A stretch of DNA of 22,533 bases from Candidatus Muiribacteriota bacterium (GTDB lineage Bacteria > Muiribacteriota > DAOVTB01), in NCBI GenBank assembly GCA_030633305.1, contig DAOVTB010000052.1:1-22533 (forward strand), given 5' to 3'. The notes under the pieces are model-generated. The model made no database searches. It saw nothing but the letters and a program-made list of their open reading frames with translations, and had not been told where the DNA came from. Within the stretch, counting starts at the first letter, position 1; the number at the start of each line of letters is the position of its first letter. The position numbers and the translations under genes were made by a program. Below, one piece after another: positions 1,907-16,377 of this stretch.

Positions 1907-2719
1907 TTATTTTTTTTCAATAAATCCTACTGTTTCATTCAATCCAACCTGAGCAAGAAATTCATTTCTGAATGTAACAAGTTCCTTATCACCAGGATTT
2001 TTTCTGATCATCTTTGAAAATTCAGCCAGTGTGTCATACCACATGCCATTATTAGCATATGCCTGCACTTTATCAAGACCTTTTGCTTTTGCAAATTCCA
2101 ATTTTTCTTTTTTGCTCGGATCTACATATTTAATAGTTCCAAATGCCTTCTTATCTCCTGAAGCATCCTCTGAATTTTTACCTGAAACAGACCATTTATA
2201 TACCCTGCCAGGAAGTAATTTCATACCGTATTTTTTTAGACTAACACCCACAATACCGGATTTTTTTGAACAATTCACTTCAGTTCGAAATACATATCCA
2301 AGATTTTTCTGAGGTTTACTTACTTCATTCCCATCCTCGTCTTCATCATCTTCGTCATCAACATCTTCTTCACTGTACAAATCATCAATTGATGCTCCCT
2401 TCCTTGGTTCAAGAGTCAATGTAAAATAAATTTTCTGTTTTGTAGATTTTCTGATAAACCAGTAAATAGTTGGTTGATCTATAGATGAATATCCAATGTG
2501 ATCTGGAACAAGAGCTGAAATAAACGGAATATCATTTGGTCCTCTTGCAGCTGCACCTTCACGATTTGTAGGTGCACCTATATCTGCTTTAGGTTTATAA
2601 ACAAAAGCTCTTCTTCTTTTTTTCTTCTTCTTTTTTTTCTGAGCAAGAAGATCATTTGATGTAGAAAATAGAAATACCATAAAAACAAAAACCGCTATCA
2701 GTTTATAAAAAATTCTCAT
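1907..2719 (-). CDS. Secreted DUF928-like protein with poly-Lys/Arg and poly-Asp/Glu low-complexity tracts
   Basis: N-terminal signal peptide (MRIFYKLIAVFVFMVFLFSTSNDLLAQ), then KKKKKKKRRR, then a region I recognise as DUF928-like (IGYSSIDQPTIYWFI...TLTLEP...), then acidic run EEDVDDEDDEDEDG. GGAGG RBS 6 nt upstream of ATG at 2719. Sits beside a CHASE2 gene, as is typical for DUF928. Confidence 0.55.
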   Translation of the reverse strand: MRIFYKLIAVFVFMVFLFSTSNDLLAQKKKKKKKRRRAFVYKPKADIGAPTNREGAAARGPNDIPFISALVPDHIGYSSIDQPTIYWFIRKSTKQKIYFTLTLEPRKGASIDDLYSEEDVDDEDDEDEDGNEVSKPQKNLGYVFRTEVNCSKKSGIVGVSLKKYGMKLLPGRVYKWSVSGKNSEDASGDKKAFGTIKYVDPSKKEKLEFAKAKGLDKVQAYANNGMWYDTLAEFSKMIRKNPGDKELVTFRNEFLAQVGLNETVGFIEKK

Positions 2720-2769
2720 TCAATTCCTCCATATTTATATGTTACATTATTATAATGACAAGAACATCT

Positions 2770-4701
2770 CTATTTTGTCAAATTTTTACTCAATTCTTCC
2801 TTAACTCTATATATATCAATTTCTCGGTCTTTTCCTTTTAATCGGACAGAGCCTACTTTTTCCGTTTTGAATTTGCCTCTTACATACATATATGTTGATA
2901 CACCAATTAAAATCCTACAAACACCATAACTCATATTATCCGTTTTATCAAAACTTTCAAGTCGAGAAGCAGTATTTACAGTATCCCCTAATACCGTATA
3001 CTCCATACGGGTTGTACTTCCAAGACTTCCGGCAATTACAGGTCCAGTGAATATTCCTATTCTCATTTTTATCATTGGTAATTTTTTTTCAACAAGTTTT
3101 TTATTTAATTGAATCAACGCTTCTTCCATATCTAATGCACAGCTTACGGAATTAAAAGCATCTTCAGATATTGCTTCAGCAGTTGTCCTGGCAACCGGAA
3201 TTCCAAAAACTGCCATTATAGAATCTCCAATAAATTTATCGATAACTCCATTATGCTCAGCAATCACTTGAGACATCAATTCCATGTATTCATTCAACCA
3301 ATCAAGTAAAACTCCCGGTTCCATTTTTTCAGATATTGTTGTAAATCCCTTCAAATCTGAAAATAAGACAGTAGTCATCATCCTTTGAGGCTGAGGACGA
3401 TTACCATCCATAAACTGATCTCTTTTTTCCCAAAGTGCTTCAGCAACATCCTGTGAAACATGCTTTGAAAACAATTGCATTAACTGTCCCCGATGCATTT
3501 TTTCCTGCCTTGAAATTATAACCAGAATAATAGATGATGTGATCAAATATGAAAAAATCTGCGGGACAACAGGAATCCAGAGACCTATTGCTAAAAGGTG
3601 AAATGTAAATAAAATCAATCCAATCATTACTATTATTGAAATAATAGCAAAAAAAACGGATGATCCCAGCCATAAAGCCACGAAACTTCCTAGTAAAGAC
3701 CAAAGCACAATCCAAAGATTTTCAAACGTTTCGTTAAAACTGCGCATTGGTTTTTTTCCATCCAGAACACATCTAAGTAACTGACTGACAATTTGCGCAT
3801 GAATCATGACACCAGGAGTTTTCTGCCCTGATTTCATTGACTGGCTGAAAGGAGTATAAAAGAAATCTTTCTTACTCACCGCAGTAGGACCAATTATCAC
3901 TAGTTTGTCTTTCAAATCTTTACTACTGACTTTACCAGTTAAAACATCCTGCAAAGAAAATTTTGTAAATCTTGATCCTATTGACTGGTAATCAAGCATA
4001 AATTGAAAGCCATTTACATTTGCATTTATATAACCACCTTCATCAGGTTTCATCCTGTACAACCTGAGTTTTCCAAATTGTATACTGTCATCTTGATTCT
4101 GTTGGAATACGATCGCAGAATCAACATAATGATATGCCAGCAGAAAGGCAAAAGAATTAAACATTTTTTCTTCTAAGTTCATGAATATAAGTCCACGTCT
4201 AATAATCCCACCGGGATCAACTACAACATCATTAAAACTCACCAGTTCTTGATGTTGCAAAAAATGCATTGCTGGCTTTACGCCCGGAGTTAGTTCATCT
4301 CCCATTTTTTGAATTGTTACAATCAATGGTTCGTCATCCGGGTCAACGTCAAACATAGCTTTTAATTTTTCTGTTCCAGGGGGAACTGGCTGATCACGAT
4401 AGAAATCAAAACCTATAACTGCAGGCTCATATTTCAAAAGGGTTGTAAATAATTCGTGAAGCAGGTCATCGTTCAATGTCCACGGAGAATTCCGATTTTT
4501 AAAAGCCCACGCTAAGTCATCATCTGTAATTCCAATTATCACAATCCTGTCATCTTTGACATTCTTACTCGCACTTTCCCTTAGATATAAATCATAAGCT
4601 GCAAGTTCAAGATATTCAAAAAAACCATATGTTCTCATGAAAATAATAGAAGAACATACTATGAATATACAAATAATCATCAATTTCAATTTTGCAGTCA
4701 T
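2770..4701 (-). CDS. CHASE2 extracytoplasmic sensor domain – transmembrane – class III adenylate/guanylate cyclase
   Basis: N-terminal TM helix, ~300 aa periplasmic domain matching CHASE2 (IVIIGITDDDL...FDF...), three TM helices, then CYC catalytic domain (TVLFSDLKGFTTISE...FIGDSIMAVFGIP...RIGIFTGPVIAGSLGS...YTVLGDTVNTASRLES). AGAGG RBS upstream. Confidence 0.85.
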   Translation of the reverse strand: MTAKLKLMIICIFIVCSSIIFMRTYGFFEYLELAAYDLYLRESASKNVKDDRIVIIGITDDDLAWAFKNRNSPWTLNDDLLHELFTTLLKYEPAVIGFDFYRDQPVPPGTEKLKAMFDVDPDDEPLIVTIQKMGDELTPGVKPAMHFLQHQELVSFNDVVVDPGGIIRRGLIFMNLEEKMFNSFAFLLAYHYVDSAIVFQQNQDDSIQFGKLRLYRMKPDEGGYINANVNGFQFMLDYQSIGSRFTKFSLQDVLTGKVSSKDLKDKLVIIGPTAVSKKDFFYTPFSQSMKSGQKTPGVMIHAQIVSQLLRCVLDGKKPMRSFNETFENLWIVLWSLLGSFVALWLGSSVFFAIISIIVMIGLILFTFHLLAIGLWIPVVPQIFSYLITSSIILVIISRQEKMHRGQLMQLFSKHVSQDVAEALWEKRDQFMDGNRPQPQRMMTTVLFSDLKGFTTISEKMEPGVLLDWLNEYMELMSQVIAEHNGVIDKFIGDSIMAVFGIPVARTTAEAISEDAFNSVSCALDMEEALIQLNKKLVEKKLPMIKMRIGIFTGPVIAGSLGSTTRMEYTVLGDTVNTASRLESFDKTDNMSYGVCRILIGVSTYMYVRGKFKTEKVGSVRLKGKDREIDIYRVKEELSKNLTK

Positions 4702-4888
4702 TCTATGCCTCTATCCAATCTTTTCCACACATTGATCACCAGTATTCAACAACATTCTGCAAATACTCATCTCCATCAGGGACTAATTTTTCACCAATAT
4801 TATAACACAACTCTTTATTATTAAAACTTTTTTCAAGATCCCAGACTTTGAATGAGATGAAGATTGGAACTTTCAAAGCAATTTATGC

Positions 4889-4932
4889 TGAGGTGTGCAC
4901 CCCACTCCGCAAGCATAAATTGTTGTAGAAAG
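4889..4932. other. Perfect 10-bp inverted repeat (CAATTTATGC/GCATAAATTG) enclosing a 24-nt G+C-rich loop (TGAGGTGTGCACCCCACTCCGCAA)
   Basis: Read directly from sequence. Lies 30–75 nt downstream of the CHAT gene stop (minus strand) and upstream of the cyclase gene. Not a canonical Rho-independent terminator: large loop, no clean U-tract. Confidence 0.5.
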
Positions 4933-4962
4933 TTTCAAGATTTGCTCATTCAATGTTTGGGA

Positions 4963-7260
4963 TTATAACCAGTTTCCAATCAGAATAAACGCGGACCAAT
5001 AAAGCGGATGCTTGTATCTATCATCTTTAAGAAGTTTTACCTGGGACATTTGAAGAGCCTTTGCTTTTGAAATCGAACTATCTTTAAGATTTTTATAAAA
5101 ATTAACAATCATGTCTGATGCAGCCTTATCATCAACATACCACAAGGACGCTAGTGCAGATCTAGCACCAGCTTTAATAGCAACTCCTGCCAATCCAAGT
5201 GACGCTTTATCATTCCCGGCAGCTGTTTTACAAGCACTCAGTGTCAGCAGTTCAACGGGTTTATCGCGAAATACCGTCTGGCTCATGAATCTTTCCAGAT
5301 GATCCATAGTCATCTTTTTATCCCAGGCCAGAAGATAACTCTTTCTGGCATCATCAAGAAATTCTCCATGTGAAGCGATATGAACAATTGAATAAGGCTC
5401 ATTTTTAAGATTTTCCCCAAAACTGTCAACAAGAAATTCCTTGTTCTTCAGGACATTACTATCATAAGATTCTTTTATCTCTTTCAGTTCCTTCTCGACA
5501 TTACCAAGAGGAGCAAATCCCTGGACTGATTCTGTTAAACCAGCCATCATGATTTTTACATCTTCCCTTTTAATTGGCTTTGGATCTGTTAGATTAAGAC
5601 CTGGAGTCACAGCAATAGCAAATTTTTCAATAAGATATTTTTTTTCTTTTCTATCCCTTAATGCACCCATGGGAATTGCACGCAATGAACCATCTGGAAC
5701 AAACACCAAAGTTGTAATATTTTGAGCTTTTAATTCTTCTTCAATAGGTTTGATTATCCATTTATAGAGCCTGTACGAATATTTCAGATACCTGTATGTT
5801 GTAGAATCAACAATATGTTTTCTTAATCTTCTGGCATTTTTCATTAATCGTTTTGAAGTAACTTTAACCTCAAATCTCTTGATATCTTTAGAAGTACTTA
5901 CCAGTAATTCCAATCTGTCCTGAAGAGGAATTATATATATTATTGCAGCATCTGAAGAGATGGAATCAAGTGATTTCTTTTTTGCTTTAAGAACAACTGC
6001 ACAATCATCATGAAAATAATCCTGCATTTCAGCTGTTTTCATCGATTCGATTGTTTCTCTGGCTTTAAGAAGATATTTTTTTTCAGCATCACCCTTCAAA
6101 CCAACAGACCTTAAAAGATATAAATCCGCGAGTCCATAGTATACTGGTTCTACCGCTTCCCTGTAAGACACTCTTCCCGCAGTACCACCACTGGACATTG
6201 CCTGTCTAACTGACTGGAGCGTATCAACAGCACTTTTATAAGCTATTATCGCATCATCATATTTCCCTTTATTCTTTAGAAACTTCCCGATTTGAGCTTC
6301 CCATAGATATACAGATTCAGGCGCCTGCCCTTTCTGCGCTGCTTGAAGTGCTTTTCTGGTCAATTCTATTGCATCATCAAAACTACCTCTTTCTTCATGT
6401 AATTGTGCAAGATACCCGTATGCATATGATGCGGCCCGCATATCCATAATTTTTTCAGCCATTATTGCTGAATCAGTTAACAATTTGTATGAAAGATAAA
6501 GTAAATCAGCAATCTTGGTAGTATCTTTACACAAAGTAGAAACCCGTTTATATGATTGTGCAATATTGATCAAACCATAAACTTTTCCATGTGAATCAGG
6601 AAGAGATCTGAATCTTTGATCTGCAATATCTAAAACCTCAAGGGCTACATCCATCTTCTTCATAAGAAACGCTGTTCGTCCAATATTTGCCAGCATTTTT
6701 GCAGACATGAGTTTTTTTCCGGTTTTACTGGTATATTTTACCCCGGCCTTATATGAATCAATGGCTTGAGCATATTTTTTTGTATAAATATAAAGGTTAC
6801 CCAAATTATTAAGTGCGCCGGCAACAGCATCAAGATTATCACATTTAATTCCAATCTTGACTGCCTCTTTAAGATCTTTTTCAGCCTTATCAAATTTCCC
6901 GAGAAACATTGAAGCATTTCCCAAACCAGACATTATCAGAGCTTGGATACTTTCAAATTTGTATTTTACAGCATTTTTTTCTGCAAGTTCCAGCGCCACA
7001 GACGCTTTCGTATACTCTCCCAGATACTGGTACGAACGGGATAATTCCAGTAAAGCCTGGCAATACAGGTTATGTTCCGCCTTTTTTGCAAATTTATCTG
7101 CTGCAAATTTGAAACTAAGGGCTGCATCTTCAAAATTCCCATTTTTGTAATATTGATATCCCCGACTTTGATATCCTTTTCCATCAATTGGAAAACAAGG
7201 CATCAATACAAAATTAAAAACTATAAAAAAAACAAGAACATTAATAATATATCTATTCAT
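4963..7260 (-). CDS. Signal-peptide TPR-repeat protein with C-terminal CHAT (caspase-like HetF-associated with TPRs) peptidase domain
   Basis: N-terminal hydrophobic signal/TM segment; multiple TPR-like repeats (YQYYKNGNFEDAALSFKFA..., LGNLYIYTKKYAQAIDSYKAG...); C-terminal CHAT domain with His/Cys dyad context (IVHIASHGEF...LLTLSACKTAAG...). GGTGGA RBS upstream of ATG at 7260. Confidence 0.85.
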   Translation of the reverse strand: MNRYIINVLVFFIVFNFVLMPCFPIDGKGYQSRGYQYYKNGNFEDAALSFKFAADKFAKKAEHNLYCQALLELSRSYQYLGEYTKASVALELAEKNAVKYKFESIQALIMSGLGNASMFLGKFDKAEKDLKEAVKIGIKCDNLDAVAGALNNLGNLYIYTKKYAQAIDSYKAGVKYTSKTGKKLMSAKMLANIGRTAFLMKKMDVALEVLDIADQRFRSLPDSHGKVYGLINIAQSYKRVSTLCKDTTKIADLLYLSYKLLTDSAIMAEKIMDMRAASYAYGYLAQLHEERGSFDDAIELTRKALQAAQKGQAPESVYLWEAQIGKFLKNKGKYDDAIIAYKSAVDTLQSVRQAMSSGGTAGRVSYREAVEPVYYGLADLYLLRSVGLKGDAEKKYLLKARETIESMKTAEMQDYFHDDCAVVLKAKKKSLDSISSDAAIIYIIPLQDRLELLVSTSKDIKRFEVKVTSKRLMKNARRLRKHIVDSTTYRYLKYSYRLYKWIIKPIEEELKAQNITTLVFVPDGSLRAIPMGALRDRKEKKYLIEKFAIAVTPGLNLTDPKPIKREDVKIMMAGLTESVQGFAPLGNVEKELKEIKESYDSNVLKNKEFLVDSFGENLKNEPYSIVHIASHGEFLDDARKSYLLAWDKKMTMDHLERFMSQTVFRDKPVELLTLSACKTAAGNDKASLGLAGVAIKAGARSALASLWYVDDKAASDMIVNFYKNLKDSSISKAKALQMSQVKLLKDDRYKHPLYWSAFILIGNWL

Positions 7261-7344
7261 AAATCCACCATTTTAATTTACTTATGTTTCCAACAAATGT
7301 TAACAGATACATAAAGCTTTATCAAGCGATAACCAAGCTCAGAG

Positions 7345-7585
7345 TGCATAACTTTTTAGTTCAAATAATATAAAAATTAACAAAATGCTTTTTTAGCCAC
7401 AGATGGACACAGATAAAACACAGAATTTTTAATACAAAAGAATCAAAAAAATGTATAAAACTTCAAAAACAATCTTTACTTAATCTTTTGCTGTTTTATT
7501 ATAAGCACTCTTATATCTGTGTTTATCTGTGTTAATCTGTGGCCTAATTTTTTTTAATTCTATTGCAGAACTAAAAAGTTGTGCA
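7345..7585. repeat. Nested imperfect palindrome: outer 18-bp inverted repeat (TGCATAACTTTTTAGTTC / GAACTAAAAAGTTGTGCA), inner ~30-bp inverted repeat made of three helically phased CACAGAT units per arm
   Basis: Left arm 7393–7425 GCCACAGATGGACACAGATAAAACACAGAA. Right arm 7515–7546 is its reverse complement with 3 mismatches. CACAGAT units at 7398, 7408, 7419 and ATCTGTG at 7515, 7525, 7535 (10–11 bp spacing). Sits in the divergent intergenic region between the CHAT and TpsB genes. Confidence 0.7.
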
Positions 7586-7671
7586 CCCCCAAGCTTTTCT
7601 CATGTAAAAAATTCTAATATTTCATTATTTTATGTCGATAATTCCTACAATATAATAATGAATGGATTAAA

Positions 7672-9279
7672 ATGAAATTTAACTTTTCTAATATTTGTAT
7701 TTATGCTGCTTTGATTCTATGCCTGTTCATCACGGGATTTGAGTCAAATGTTTTTTGTGAACCAGCAGGCAGTGATTCAAAAATTCTATCGAAAATTCAA
7801 GTGAATAGCATCAAAGTTTCAGGAAATACTGCAATATCTGATAAAGAGCTTAGAAAATTCCTTGAAAAATATGAGAATACTACAATAACCTTTGAAGAAC
7901 TTCAAAAACTCAGGCATGATCTTACTGCTTTCTATATTTCCAAAGGGTATATCAATTCAGGAGTAATCATACCTGATCAAAAATTAGAAAATGGTAACAT
8001 CGTTCTGAAAGTAATAGAAGGTAAATTAACTGGTGTTGAAGTTAAAAATAATAAACACTTCAGATCATCATATATATCCCGAAGACTGCAAAGTGTTGCT
8101 GGCCCGCCACTTAATCTGAATAAAATTCAGTTAATGCTCCTTAGGCTTCAGCAACATCAGGGTATAAAAAGAATAAATGCAAAAATGAGTCCCGGAATAA
8201 AACCTGGTGACGGAATACTAAATGTAAAAATAACTGAAAATAATCCATTTTCAATTGGGATCAGGTTCAGTAATGATCGTCCTCCAAGCGTTGGAGAAAA
8301 CAGAGCCGAGATTACTTTAAATCACATTAATGTAACAGGTCACGGAGATGCTCTTTACACAAAATTTGGGATAACACGCGGAATGGATGATTATGACATC
8401 AGCTATCATTACCCGATCAATGCAAAAGATACTATTTTTAAAGTTCAGTATAGAAAAAGTGATAGTACAGTTATTGAAGGATTATTCAAACCTCTGGATA
8501 TTGACAGCGCATCTGAAACAATAGGCATTGGTTTTCAACATCCATTAAAATGGTCACCAAATCAGGAATTTACTCTTGGACTTGTCGGCGAGCACCGAAA
8601 CAATAAAACATTTTTACTAGGAAGACCTTTTTCGTTTTCGCTTGGAGCAGAAGATGGGAAAACGAGAGTTTCAGTAATTCGATTTTCACAGGAATGGATG
8701 AAAAGATGCAGCCTGCAGGTTGCAGCAGCAAAATCAATATTTAATTTTGGTATAACTGCATATGGTGCAACTTCAAATGTTTATGATGTTGACAGCCAGT
8801 TTTTCTCCTGGCAGGGACAGTATCAGCTAGTAAGAAGACTTGGAAGTAAAGGTACTCAGATGATCTTTAAAACCAATGCTCAGATAACAAGCGATATGCT
8901 ACTTCCTCTTGAAAAATTTTCAGTAGGTGGTACAAATACAGTAAGGGGTTATCGTGAAAACCTGTATGTAAGGGACAACGGAGTAATAGGGTCACTTGAA
9001 TTCAGAATTCCATTAAAAAAATGTAAACATTGTTCAATACAATGGGCTCCATTTTTAGATTACGGAAAAGCCTGGGATACACGTTCTGAAAGTCCTGGAA
9101 GTCTATTAAGTTTGGGCATGGGTTTACGCTGGTCTATTGGAAAAATCGGTGAATATATCTTTAAACACCCGAAACTTATAAATATCTATTACGGCTATGA
9201 TCTAAAAAATATACCGAGTACCGGCGAGGAACTTCAGGATAAAGGGATTCATATTGAATTCTCTACAATGCTATTCTAA
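7672..9279 (+). CDS. ShlB/FhaC/HecB-family two-partner-secretion transporter (TpsB-like, POTRA + Omp85-type beta-barrel)
   Basis: Signal peptide, POTRA signature (IKVSGNTAISDKELRKFLEKY...LRHDLTAFYISKGYINSGVIIPDQKLENGNIVLKVIEGKL), long beta-rich C-terminal region ending in an aromatic residue (…EFSTMLF). Confidence 0.8.
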   Translation: MKFNFSNICIYAALILCLFITGFESNVFCEPAGSDSKILSKIQVNSIKVSGNTAISDKELRKFLEKYENTTITFEELQKLRHDLTAFYISKGYINSGVIIPDQKLENGNIVLKVIEGKLTGVEVKNNKHFRSSYISRRLQSVAGPPLNLNKIQLMLLRLQQHQGIKRINAKMSPGIKPGDGILNVKITENNPFSIGIRFSNDRPPSVGENRAEITLNHINVTGHGDALYTKFGITRGMDDYDISYHYPINAKDTIFKVQYRKSDSTVIEGLFKPLDIDSASETIGIGFQHPLKWSPNQEFTLGLVGEHRNNKTFLLGRPFSFSLGAEDGKTRVSVIRFSQEWMKRCSLQVAAAKSIFNFGITAYGATSNVYDVDSQFFSWQGQYQLVRRLGSKGTQMIFKTNAQITSDMLLPLEKFSVGGTNTVRGYRENLYVRDNGVIGSLEFRIPLKKCKHCSIQWAPFLDYGKAWDTRSESPGSLLSLGMGLRWSIGKIGEYIFKHPKLINIYYGYDLKNIPSTGEELQDKGIHIEFSTMLF

Positions 9280-16250: not shown

Positions 16251-16377
16251 AACCCGCATATTGCATGAGATGAAGGTTGGAATTTTCCAGTCTGGGCAAG
16301 CTGAGGCGTATTTTTATACGTCGCAAGCTTGAACTGATGCAGAAAATTTCAAGATTCGCTCATGCAATATGCGGGTT
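16251..16377. ncRNA. 127-bp element with perfect 19-bp terminal inverted repeats (AACCCGCATATTGCATGAG … CTCATGCAATATGCGGGTT); candidate panhandle structured RNA, or MITE-like repeat
   Basis: TIRs at 16251–16269 and 16359–16377 are exact reverse complements. The interior (16270–16358) is G+C-richer than surrounding DNA and holds an internal hairpin CGTAT-TTTT-ATACG (16307–16320) and a CAAGCTTG palindrome. Lies between the convergent lipoprotein and MVP-like genes. Strand of any transcript unknown. Confidence 0.4.

Follow-up and report, generated by a model that had tools for sequence, protein, structure and literature searches.

Four consecutive genes for envelope proteins lie between positions 1907 and 9279 of contig DAOVTB010000052.1 from a Candidatus Muiribacteriota bacterium, analysed here over a stretch of 22,533 nucleotides that we call the window, and our conclusion is that they are a reduced member, lacking the protein TpsA, of a widespread module that spans the cell envelope and probably serves in signalling. 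Three of the genes are on the reverse strand. They encode a DUF928 protein (1907-2719; an open reading frame (ORF) of 270 amino acids (aa), positioned as in an initial annotation made from the sequence of the window), a CHASE2 receptor fused to a class IIIb adenylate cyclase (2770-4701; 643 aa) and a TPR-CHAT caspase-like protease that is predicted to be exported (4963-7260; 765 aa). The fourth is on the forward strand (7672-9279; 535 aa) and encodes an Omp85 outer-membrane transporter of the TpsB type (ShlB/FhaC family). The initial annotation had all four where we find them in the ORF list, with the ShlB gene divergent from the other three, and the domains that it had assigned, DUF928, CHASE2 with a class III cyclase, TPR-CHAT, and ShlB with POTRA_2, are all far over the curated cut-offs in a check with the Pfam hidden Markov models. 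It had also taken all four products to be envelope proteins, and indeed each is predicted to start with a hydrophobic signal or anchor segment.

This gene neighbourhood is conserved in many other bacteria. An exhaustive search found about 2166 relatives of DUF928 among representatives of 1.84 billion proteins; a word-index search gave 2. We scanned one genome per species with a 12-sequence DUF928 alignment and obtained 79 loci in about ten phylum-level groups, with labels that include Desulfobacterota, Nitrospirota, Nitrospinota, Acidobacteriota, Verrucomicrobiota, Rokubacteria and Zixibacteria as well as Alpha-, Beta- and Gammaproteobacteria, and the ORFs of all loci were profiled with seeds from the window's own domains. 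CHASE2 and a cyclase were found in 58 of the 79, CHAT in 59 and ShlB in 55. For 41 loci, all from different species, there is at least 8 kb upstream and at least 3 kb downstream of the DUF928 gene, and in this full-flank subset CHASE2 is present in 35, a cyclase in 34, CHAT in 38, ShlB in 34 and all four in 29. A survey anchored instead on homologues of the window CHAT protein, using precomputed Pfam neighbourhoods, reproduces the same arrangement of neighbours. The identities of protein pairs are also correlated across 44 loci (r 0.45-0.80), most strongly for CHAT with ShlB (r 0.80) and for DUF928 with CHAT (r 0.73). This correlation, to which species phylogeny contributes, fits inheritance of the genes as a unit.

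Clustering of the remaining ORFs revealed a fifth family, a TpsA of 900-1200 aa with a two-partner secretion (TPS) domain, which is found beside TpsB in 51 loci. The canonical order, on one strand, is TpsA, TpsB, TPR-CHAT, CHASE2-cyclase, DUF928, and in a common variant the TpsA-TpsB pair is convergent and downstream of DUF928. Loci of the Rhodoferax type (L053, L056, L057 and L070) have a gene for a 273-aa secreted PEP-CTERM protein between the TpsA and CHASE2-cyclase genes (6790-7608 in L057). Canonical TpsA proteins end in a conserved Cys-containing tail, C..R...G..SSFvV.GR.GlP.EPGG, often with a second C-terminal Cys, and no recognisable toxin or known adhesin domain was found in the TpsA homologues of the related loci.

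The 56 loci that carry ShlB include 47 with TpsA and 7 that are cut by a contig end, and only the window and one other locus (L029) lack it, so that TpsA accompanies ShlB in 47 of the 49 loci that can be evaluated. The initial annotation had seen no classical TpsA partner in the window, and this is borne out by a profile of 43 TpsA homologues, which with all filters off found no TPS domain or remnant of one in the six-frame translation. The lack of TpsA is particular to the clade to which the window belongs. L101, with a CHAT protein 70% identical to that of the window, has the same layout, ShlB divergent from CHAT and then CHASE2, and in L102 and L103 (83% identical) CHAT is followed by ShlB and diverges from the cyclase gene; none of the three has TpsA. 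As the absence of TpsA, a short TpsB N-terminus and an altered DUF928 motif, both described below, are common to the clade, we see the loss of TpsA as an evolved state and not as an accident of assembly.

The window TpsB matches ShlB (E 9e-26), POTRA_2 (E 6.5e-24) and Omp85 in Pfam, with a layout of signal peptide, POTRA, barrel and a loop-6 VRGY motif at residue 424, and its best PDB sequence match is CdiB (6WIM). In these respects it is like the transporters of type Vb secretion (FhaB/FhaC and CdiA/CdiB), and the related loci with their adjacent TPS-domain TpsA add to the likeness. However the window differs from such systems in having no TpsA, and its TpsB is without the N-terminal linker region. 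Sequence comparison gives about 13 residues between signal peptide and POTRA1 in the TpsB of the window and of L101-L103, as against 40-70 residues with a Pro-rich linker in canonical homologues, and by this comparison the window protein would lack both the linker and the N-terminal plug helix before POTRA1. The canonical linker often begins (D)PTGRSGEPP, and the PTGRSGEPP motif is absent from the window TpsB. The related TpsA proteins also depart from the type Vb pattern, in that they end in the family-specific conserved Cys/Arg/Gly/Pro tail and have no toxin or known adhesin domain. The barrel of the window clade is probably a surface receptor or docking site and not an exporter.

For the cyclase protein Pfam gives CHASE2 (E 5e-53, residues 18-339) and Guanylate_cyc (E 4e-28, residues 443-627). 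A transmembrane segment at about residues 5-25 is followed by CHASE2, a hydrophobic block of about 70 residues (about 328-397) with room for three segments, and then the cyclase domain, a topology that would place CHASE2 outside the cytoplasm, in the periplasm, and the cyclase domain in the cytoplasm. Public annotations differ on the start of this protein, 622 aa in ENA and 643 aa in NCBI, and it is the longer form that includes the first transmembrane segment. The closest solved match is CyaB of Pseudomonas aeruginosa (PDB 3R5G; E 7.6e-31), a class IIIb adenylate cyclase, and alignment to it gives D449 and D493 as metal-binding, N576 and R580 as transition-state and K489 and T569 as adenine-specifying residues. 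The last two are the class IIIb adenylate-cyclase pair, as in CyaB, and point to ATP rather than GTP as the substrate. Among the homologues both metal-binding Asp residues are kept in 59 of 59, and the Asn and Arg in 56 of 59. In about half of the related cyclases, to which we return below, the place of the adenine-specifying Lys is taken by Asp, or by Gln, Ser, Arg or Asn, and these cyclases also have a conserved GDGIK after the second metal Asp (loci L003-L081; for example 7856-9772 in L009 and 8050-9957 in L013).

ORFs with a cyclic-nucleotide (cNMP)-binding domain are present in 22 of the 79 loci, and in 19 of these they are inside the module or at most 1.5 kb from its edge (for example L080 724-2130, L004 10720-12666, L052 10785-12551, L059 3541-5469 and L037 10754-13600). 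The partners fused to cNMP_binding are Ser/Thr kinase, Na/sulfate symporter, HD-GYP, glutaminase-STAS and MMPL. One would expect such a pattern if a cyclic nucleotide were the output and its readers were encoded locally, and together with the conserved catalytic residues it makes the cyclic-nucleotide output proposed in the initial annotation a credible one. In the window itself a domain search of the ORFs found no cNMP-binding protein.

A link between CHASE2 and CHAT had also been proposed, and is supported both by the conserved adjacency and by fusion proteins, in cyanobacteria and in L095, in which CHAT is N-terminal to CHASE2 (L099 8732-11077, L100 8822-11107 and L095 15259-17586). In these fusions, on Nostoc plasmids and in L095, the N-terminal CHAT stands in for the cyclase, and CHASE2 thus looks like a receiver with exchangeable cytoplasmic outputs; being N-terminal to CHASE2, the CHAT of the fusion proteins is probably cytoplasmic. 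The fusion gene of pCC7120alpha has DUF928 and TpsA as neighbours, and that of the Nostoc punctiforme plasmid has TpsA and a separate TPR-CHAT. Both Nostoc plasmids also have a sigma-70 factor and a DUF1822 gene by the fusion, with DUF928 in L099 and the separate TPR-CHAT in L100, and the L095 fusion adjoins DUF928, TPR-CHAT and a TpsA-ShlB pair. The annotated Nostoc plasmids agree with the earlier statement that these families co-occur in cyanobacteria.

The TPR-CHAT protein matches CHAT (E 5e-56, residues 494-763) and several TPR families in Pfam, and has a hydrophobic signal or anchor at its N-terminus, then about 20 helices of the TPR type and after them the CHAT domain. The catalytic dyad is H631 (5368-5370) and C677 (5230-5232), and the His and Cys are kept in 57 of 57 homologues; with the dyad intact the protein is predicted to be a protease. 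A hydrophobic signal segment is present at the N-terminus in 44 of 51 CHAT homologues, about ten of the homologues (about a fifth) having lipoboxes, and in 78 of 88 DUF928 homologues, and both proteins are predicted to be exported.

An AlphaFold2 model of the TPR-CHAT protein, made with database homologues, has a pLDDT of 89.6, and its top Foldseek matches are Csx29/craspase, DdvA and separase, in all of which, as in the window protein, a CHAT domain with a His-Cys dyad comes after a TPR solenoid. Csx29 is the best PDB match of the model (E down to 5e-17, TM score up to 0.6). All three surfaced by fold alone, as comparison of the window CHAT sequence with PDB sequences gave TPR proteins only, and they differ from the window protein in sequence, with only 10-14% identity. 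The NCBIfam Csx29 model gives the window CHAT 29 bits against a cut-off of 300, and Pfam finds no cas genes among the window ORFs. The type III-E craspase is cytoplasmic and associated with Cas7-11 (gRAMP), and the window protein, with a predicted signal or anchor and with neither Cas7-11 nor a CRISPR locus, falls outside that group. DdvA is an anti-sigma factor with a periplasmic TPR-CHAT region, has been proposed to transduce an envelope signal and controls a CBASS/CRISPR defence island (PMC11506125). The window protein is like it in being a putative periplasmic TPR-CHAT protein, but is free and not fused to a transmembrane anti-sigma domain.

The DUF928 protein scores 95.7 bits with Pfam PF06051 against a cut-off of 26 (E 3.8e-27), over profile positions 2-179 of 184. 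Its signal peptide is followed by a Lys/Arg-rich linker, an N-terminal motif and a beta-sandwich packed on a five-helix TPR-like domain. The poly-K and acidic tracts described in the initial annotation are both present in the sequence. The first, KKKKKKKRRR at residues 28-37, comes after the signal peptide and is clade-specific; the second, EEDVDDEDDEDEDG at residues 117-130, has been inserted in a beta-sandwich loop that is modelled with low confidence, and is also clade-specific and missing from the rest of the family. DUF928 is often duplicated, with two or three genes in tandem or two DUF928 units in one protein of about 450-500 aa (L058 8971-11380, L072 9788-11400, L076 9214-10832 and L105 6769-8181; proteins P0003, P0004 and P0006).

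By two methods the model of the DUF928 protein is closest to the C-terminal domain of MtxA (PDB 4Z29). MtxA is a secreted protein of magnetotactic bacteria, and mtxA is followed by a gene for a CHASE2-adenylate cyclase (PMC4439547). The window DUF928 protein is thus like MtxA in predicted fold and in having a CHASE2-cyclase gene as neighbour, but the two have no detectable sequence similarity and the N-terminal region of MtxA is longer and distinct. Since the DUF928 profile found nothing relevant among PDB sequences, and missed 4Z29 even at E 10, the link to MtxA is one of fold and gene neighbourhood only.

The N-terminal motif of DUF928 is seen in the family alignment as Y.PP.RGAP..RVGGGTRG, and in the window it is VYKPKADIGAPTNREGAAARG (residues 40-60; 2540-2602, reverse strand), in which Y41, P43, G48, P50, R53 and R59 are kept, R59 being invariant across the family, and the first Arg and the GGG are replaced. 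This variant, VYKPK..IG.P.NREGAA.RG, is kept within the clade, including a 60%-identical relative (P0002). In the canonical module, motifs of the type Arg-Gly-(Gly/Ala/Ser)-x-Pro occur in three termini that would be exposed to the periplasm, the N-terminus of DUF928, the C-terminal tail of TpsA and the N-terminus of TpsB (for example TpsA of L012, 8728-11466, and TpsB of L047, 10654-12417). They are about 17- to 23-fold enriched over all locus ORFs and nearly absent elsewhere in TpsA and TpsB, and TPR-CHAT might use them as a shared site of docking or cleavage.

Our interpretation is that the module serves outside-in envelope signalling with cyclic AMP (cAMP) as output, and we put the probability of this general picture at roughly 0.55. 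It is based on co-inheritance over many phyla, export signals, intact catalytic residues, the adenine-specifying pair of the window cyclase and the cNMP-binding neighbours in other loci. The CHAT-CHASE2 fusions and the MtxA-like fold of DUF928 also speak for it, and it has precedents in DdvA, whose periplasmic TPR-CHAT acts in signalling across the envelope, and in the CHASE2 cyclases that need NsrA. The signal would run from the outside in. The TpsB barrel, normally with a surface TpsA filament, would signal an event at the surface or outside the cell to the TPR-CHAT protease in the periplasm, which in turn would act on, or be restrained by, the MtxA-like DUF928 protein through the flexible N-terminal Arg/Gly/Pro motif of the latter. 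The periplasmic CHASE2 domain would read the resulting state of DUF928 or of CHAT and switch the cytoplasmic class IIIb adenylate cyclase, and cAMP would pass to cNMP-binding effectors, which in the window organism would be encoded outside the window. In the window clade the bare barrel, its filament and linker lost, would probably act as receptor or docking site, in a way comparable to the requirement of CyaK and CyaD1/D2 for NsrA that is discussed below. That the signal passes from the protease by way of DUF928 to CHASE2 is more tentative. A new kind of proteolysis-gated pathway across the envelope, in which TPR-CHAT would turn the state of the TPS filament, or in the window clade of the bare TpsB, into a second-messenger signal in the cytoplasm by cleaving or releasing DUF928 as an MtxA-like adaptor and physiological ligand of CHASE2, is likewise a suggestion that may well prove wrong.

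Several points weigh against this interpretation. The window has neither TpsA nor any cNMP-binding protein, so that the signal input and the reader are both unseen here. In about half of the related cyclases the adenine-specifying Lys is replaced by Asp (in the context VDDYAGDGIK), and their nucleotide product may therefore not be cAMP. Five loci (L029, L058, L072, L076 and L106) have TPS, CHAT and DUF928 with no CHASE2 cyclase, and because some loci keep these genes without it the cyclase is an optional add-on output, with the periplasmic trio as the core. The order of protease, DUF928 and CHASE2 is one that we infer from anatomy and gene neighbourhood. The motif shared by DUF928, TpsA and TpsB is a lead only, because it was defined after the sequences had been viewed, and it is altered in the window DUF928 and absent from the window TpsB. 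Finally, deletion of mtxA gave no phenotype under standard conditions (PMC4439547).

With regard to characterised CHASE2 cyclases, CyaK and CyaD1/D2 of Sinorhizobium meliloti depend on NsrA, a barrel protein of the outer membrane, for the sensing of an extracellular protein signal (PMC7529298, PMC13001267). That system is like the module in combining a CHASE2 receptor adenylate cyclase with a neighbouring outer-membrane barrel, with cAMP raised by a protein signal. However the NsrA-like protein is a single chain of 1256 aa (FecR, TPR and C-terminal barrel), and there is no CHAT, DUF928 or TpsA in that system. In L098 the gene for an NsrA-like FecR-TPR-barrel protein is directly upstream of a CHASE2 cyclase gene. 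NsrA was considered as a possible homologue of ShlB and rejected, as the L098 protein at best scores below 0 bits with the ShlB profile and has no match to the DUF928 or CHAT profiles. Pfam found no FecR protein, as expected of an NsrA-type partner, among the window ORFs.

Of the alternatives the one that survives best is retention and release of an adhesin in the manner of the Lap proteins, in which CHAT would trim the TpsA tail off the TpsB pore, DUF928 and the cyclase would tune or report this, and the window copy would be a remnant. In P. aeruginosa LapD and LapG control the TpsA-type adhesin CdrA with its transporter CdrB (PMC4694147). The logic is similar, in that a type Vb surface protein is the target of a periplasmic cysteine protease and a protein of the inner membrane connects this to a nucleotide second messenger. 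The conserved Cys-containing TpsA tail, with its motif SSFvV.GR.GlP.EPGG, and the loci that have TPS, CHAT and DUF928 but no cyclase make such a role plausible for canonical loci, for which it overlaps with outside-in signalling, our preferred explanation. However homology is confined to the TPS pair. The protease LapG is not of the CHAT kind, and LapD is a receptor for cyclic di-GMP that works from the inside out, where the inner-membrane protein of the window is a cyclase with a periplasmic sensor domain; neither a LapG-family protease nor a LapD-type GGDEF-EAL receptor is among the Pfam results for the window ORFs. The window clade also retains CHAT, DUF928, cyclase and TpsB intact in at least three arrangements without TpsA, and because these four genes are kept intact in a TpsA-less clade they should have a role that is independent of adhesin release. 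The cyclase is moreover an output enzyme, and local cNMP-binding effectors point to signalling. We consider adhesin release unlikely as the general explanation.

The initial annotation had suggested that the TpsB barrel secretes the CHAT protease to the surface or medium, and that CHASE2 senses the extracellular products of its proteolysis. CHAT does carry a signal peptide, TpsA is missing from the window, the adjacency of ShlB and CHAT within the clade outlives two rearrangements without TpsA (divergent in L101, CHAT then ShlB in L102 and L103), and the correlation in identity is strongest for this pair, with the r of 0.80 given above. However TpsB transporters, as known from type Vb secretion, recognise the TPS domain of their substrate, and CHAT has no such domain. 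In all but two of the 49 evaluable loci a true TpsA is the partner of this TpsB family, the lipoboxes in about a fifth of the CHAT homologues are those of lipoprotein-type proteins, and a folded TPR solenoid of 85 kDa would be an unlikely client for a TpsB. Secretion of the protease by TpsB thus seems improbable to us, and we have not retained it.

A conflict or contact-dependent system had been suggested as well, and here one can envisage an envelope sensor that triggers a Pycsar- or CBASS-like cyclic-nucleotide response or a caspase-like suicide of the cell. The cyclase domain matches the Pycsar cyclase models of PADLOC (best E 2.8e-30), the substrate residues are non-canonical in half of the related cyclases, CHASE2 and CHAT can be fused, and a CHASE2 match on a plasmid (H33) is annotated as a TIR domain-containing protein. 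DdvA, which is to our knowledge the only periplasmic TPR-CHAT protein that has been studied, has a CBASS/CRISPR island under its control. However what PADLOC recognises in the cyclase is only the class III fold in general. Its defence models gave no match for DUF928 or ShlB, and for CHAT only a generic TPR model (E 8.8e-8) and a weak match to BovA (E 4.2e-5). The window cyclase has canonical adenylate-cyclase residues, the TpsA homologues have no recognisable toxin domain, and the cNMP-binding proteins that neighbour the module in other loci are kinases, transporters, an HD-GYP protein and a glutaminase, unlike the killer proteins of Pycsar, which are small membrane proteins or TIR proteins. 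In the window a domain search of the ORFs found no cNMP-binding or effector gene, and Pfam found no toxin, immunity or mobile-element gene flanking the module. A defence function is in our view very unlikely. Of the initial interpretation as a whole, the conserved module, the envelope products, the CHASE2-CHAT link and the cyclic-nucleotide output are retained, and the export of CHAT by TpsB and the conflict or contact-dependent role are not. New with respect to it are the TpsA gene of the canonical module, the cNMP receptors encoded locally in other loci and the MtxA-like fold of DUF928.

Chance adjacency of four unrelated envelope genes, for which one can cite only the 261-bp and 411-bp intergenic gaps with their repeat elements, is refuted by the 29 of 41 full-flank loci with all four genes, by their clustering in dozens of species of many phyla as seen from two independent anchors, and by the existence of CHAT-CHASE2 fusions, and its probability is negligible.

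A long hairpin repeat of about 125 nt (4838-4961, no strand assigned), found by repeat search and RNA fold z-score, lies in the 261-bp gap that separates the cyclase gene from the CHAT gene. There is a second copy at 16251-16377. Both copies are intergenic and about 125-130 nt in length, and they share 73-80% identity; their RNA fold z-scores are -6.5 and -12, and neither has an Rfam match, a search of the whole window having given none. The element is probably a REP/MITE-like insertion (repetitive extragenic palindrome or miniature inverted-repeat transposable element) and not a part of the module. The 411-bp divergent region between CHAT and ShlB has nested inverted repeats (span 7344-7586), the outer pair 7344-7362/7568-7586 being 19 nt with 95% complementarity and the inner pair 7396-7417/7522-7543 being 22 nt with 91%. 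These could be a regulatory site, or the scar of the rearrangement that took out TpsA. Promoter and terminator scans of the window gave no more sites than did shuffled sequence. The flanks of the module are housekeeping or unrelated genes, for a GT4 glycosyltransferase, a U32 peptidase, an HI0933-like flavoprotein and prfB. Elsewhere in the window (16384-17784, reverse strand) there is a gene for a 466-aa protein with an SPFH/Band 7 domain and weak matches to the major-vault-protein shoulder and repeat.

All of the domain families in the module are known and fragments of the association are in print, among them a CHASE2-DUF928-WD40 cluster in N. punctiforme (PMC5587647). The five-gene module and its mechanism are not described in the literature that we found on these families, in agreement with the view in the initial annotation that this is a real and conserved module without a characterised function.

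CHASE2 is a common sensor domain in bacteria, and we know of no endogenous ligand that has been defined for it. The module offers it a candidate partner, the MtxA-like DUF928 protein, and a candidate upstream enzyme, the putative periplasmic caspase-like protease. If the proteolysis-gated pathway is true, DUF928 would be the first endogenous ligand for CHASE2 and the pathway would be a bacterial counterpart of signalling by protease-activated receptors. The link between DUF928 and CHASE2, if true, would also explain why MtxA, a protein named for magnetotaxis, is encoded beside a CHASE2 cyclase. The TPR-CHAT family of the window type is free-standing and far wider spread than DdvA. For type Vb secretion the module would tie surface filaments to cAMP signalling, and contact or surface sensing by way of a TPS system becomes testable. 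The window clade, with no TpsA and a truncated TpsB N-terminus, is a natural minimal version of the module and may help to dissect the role of the barrel itself.

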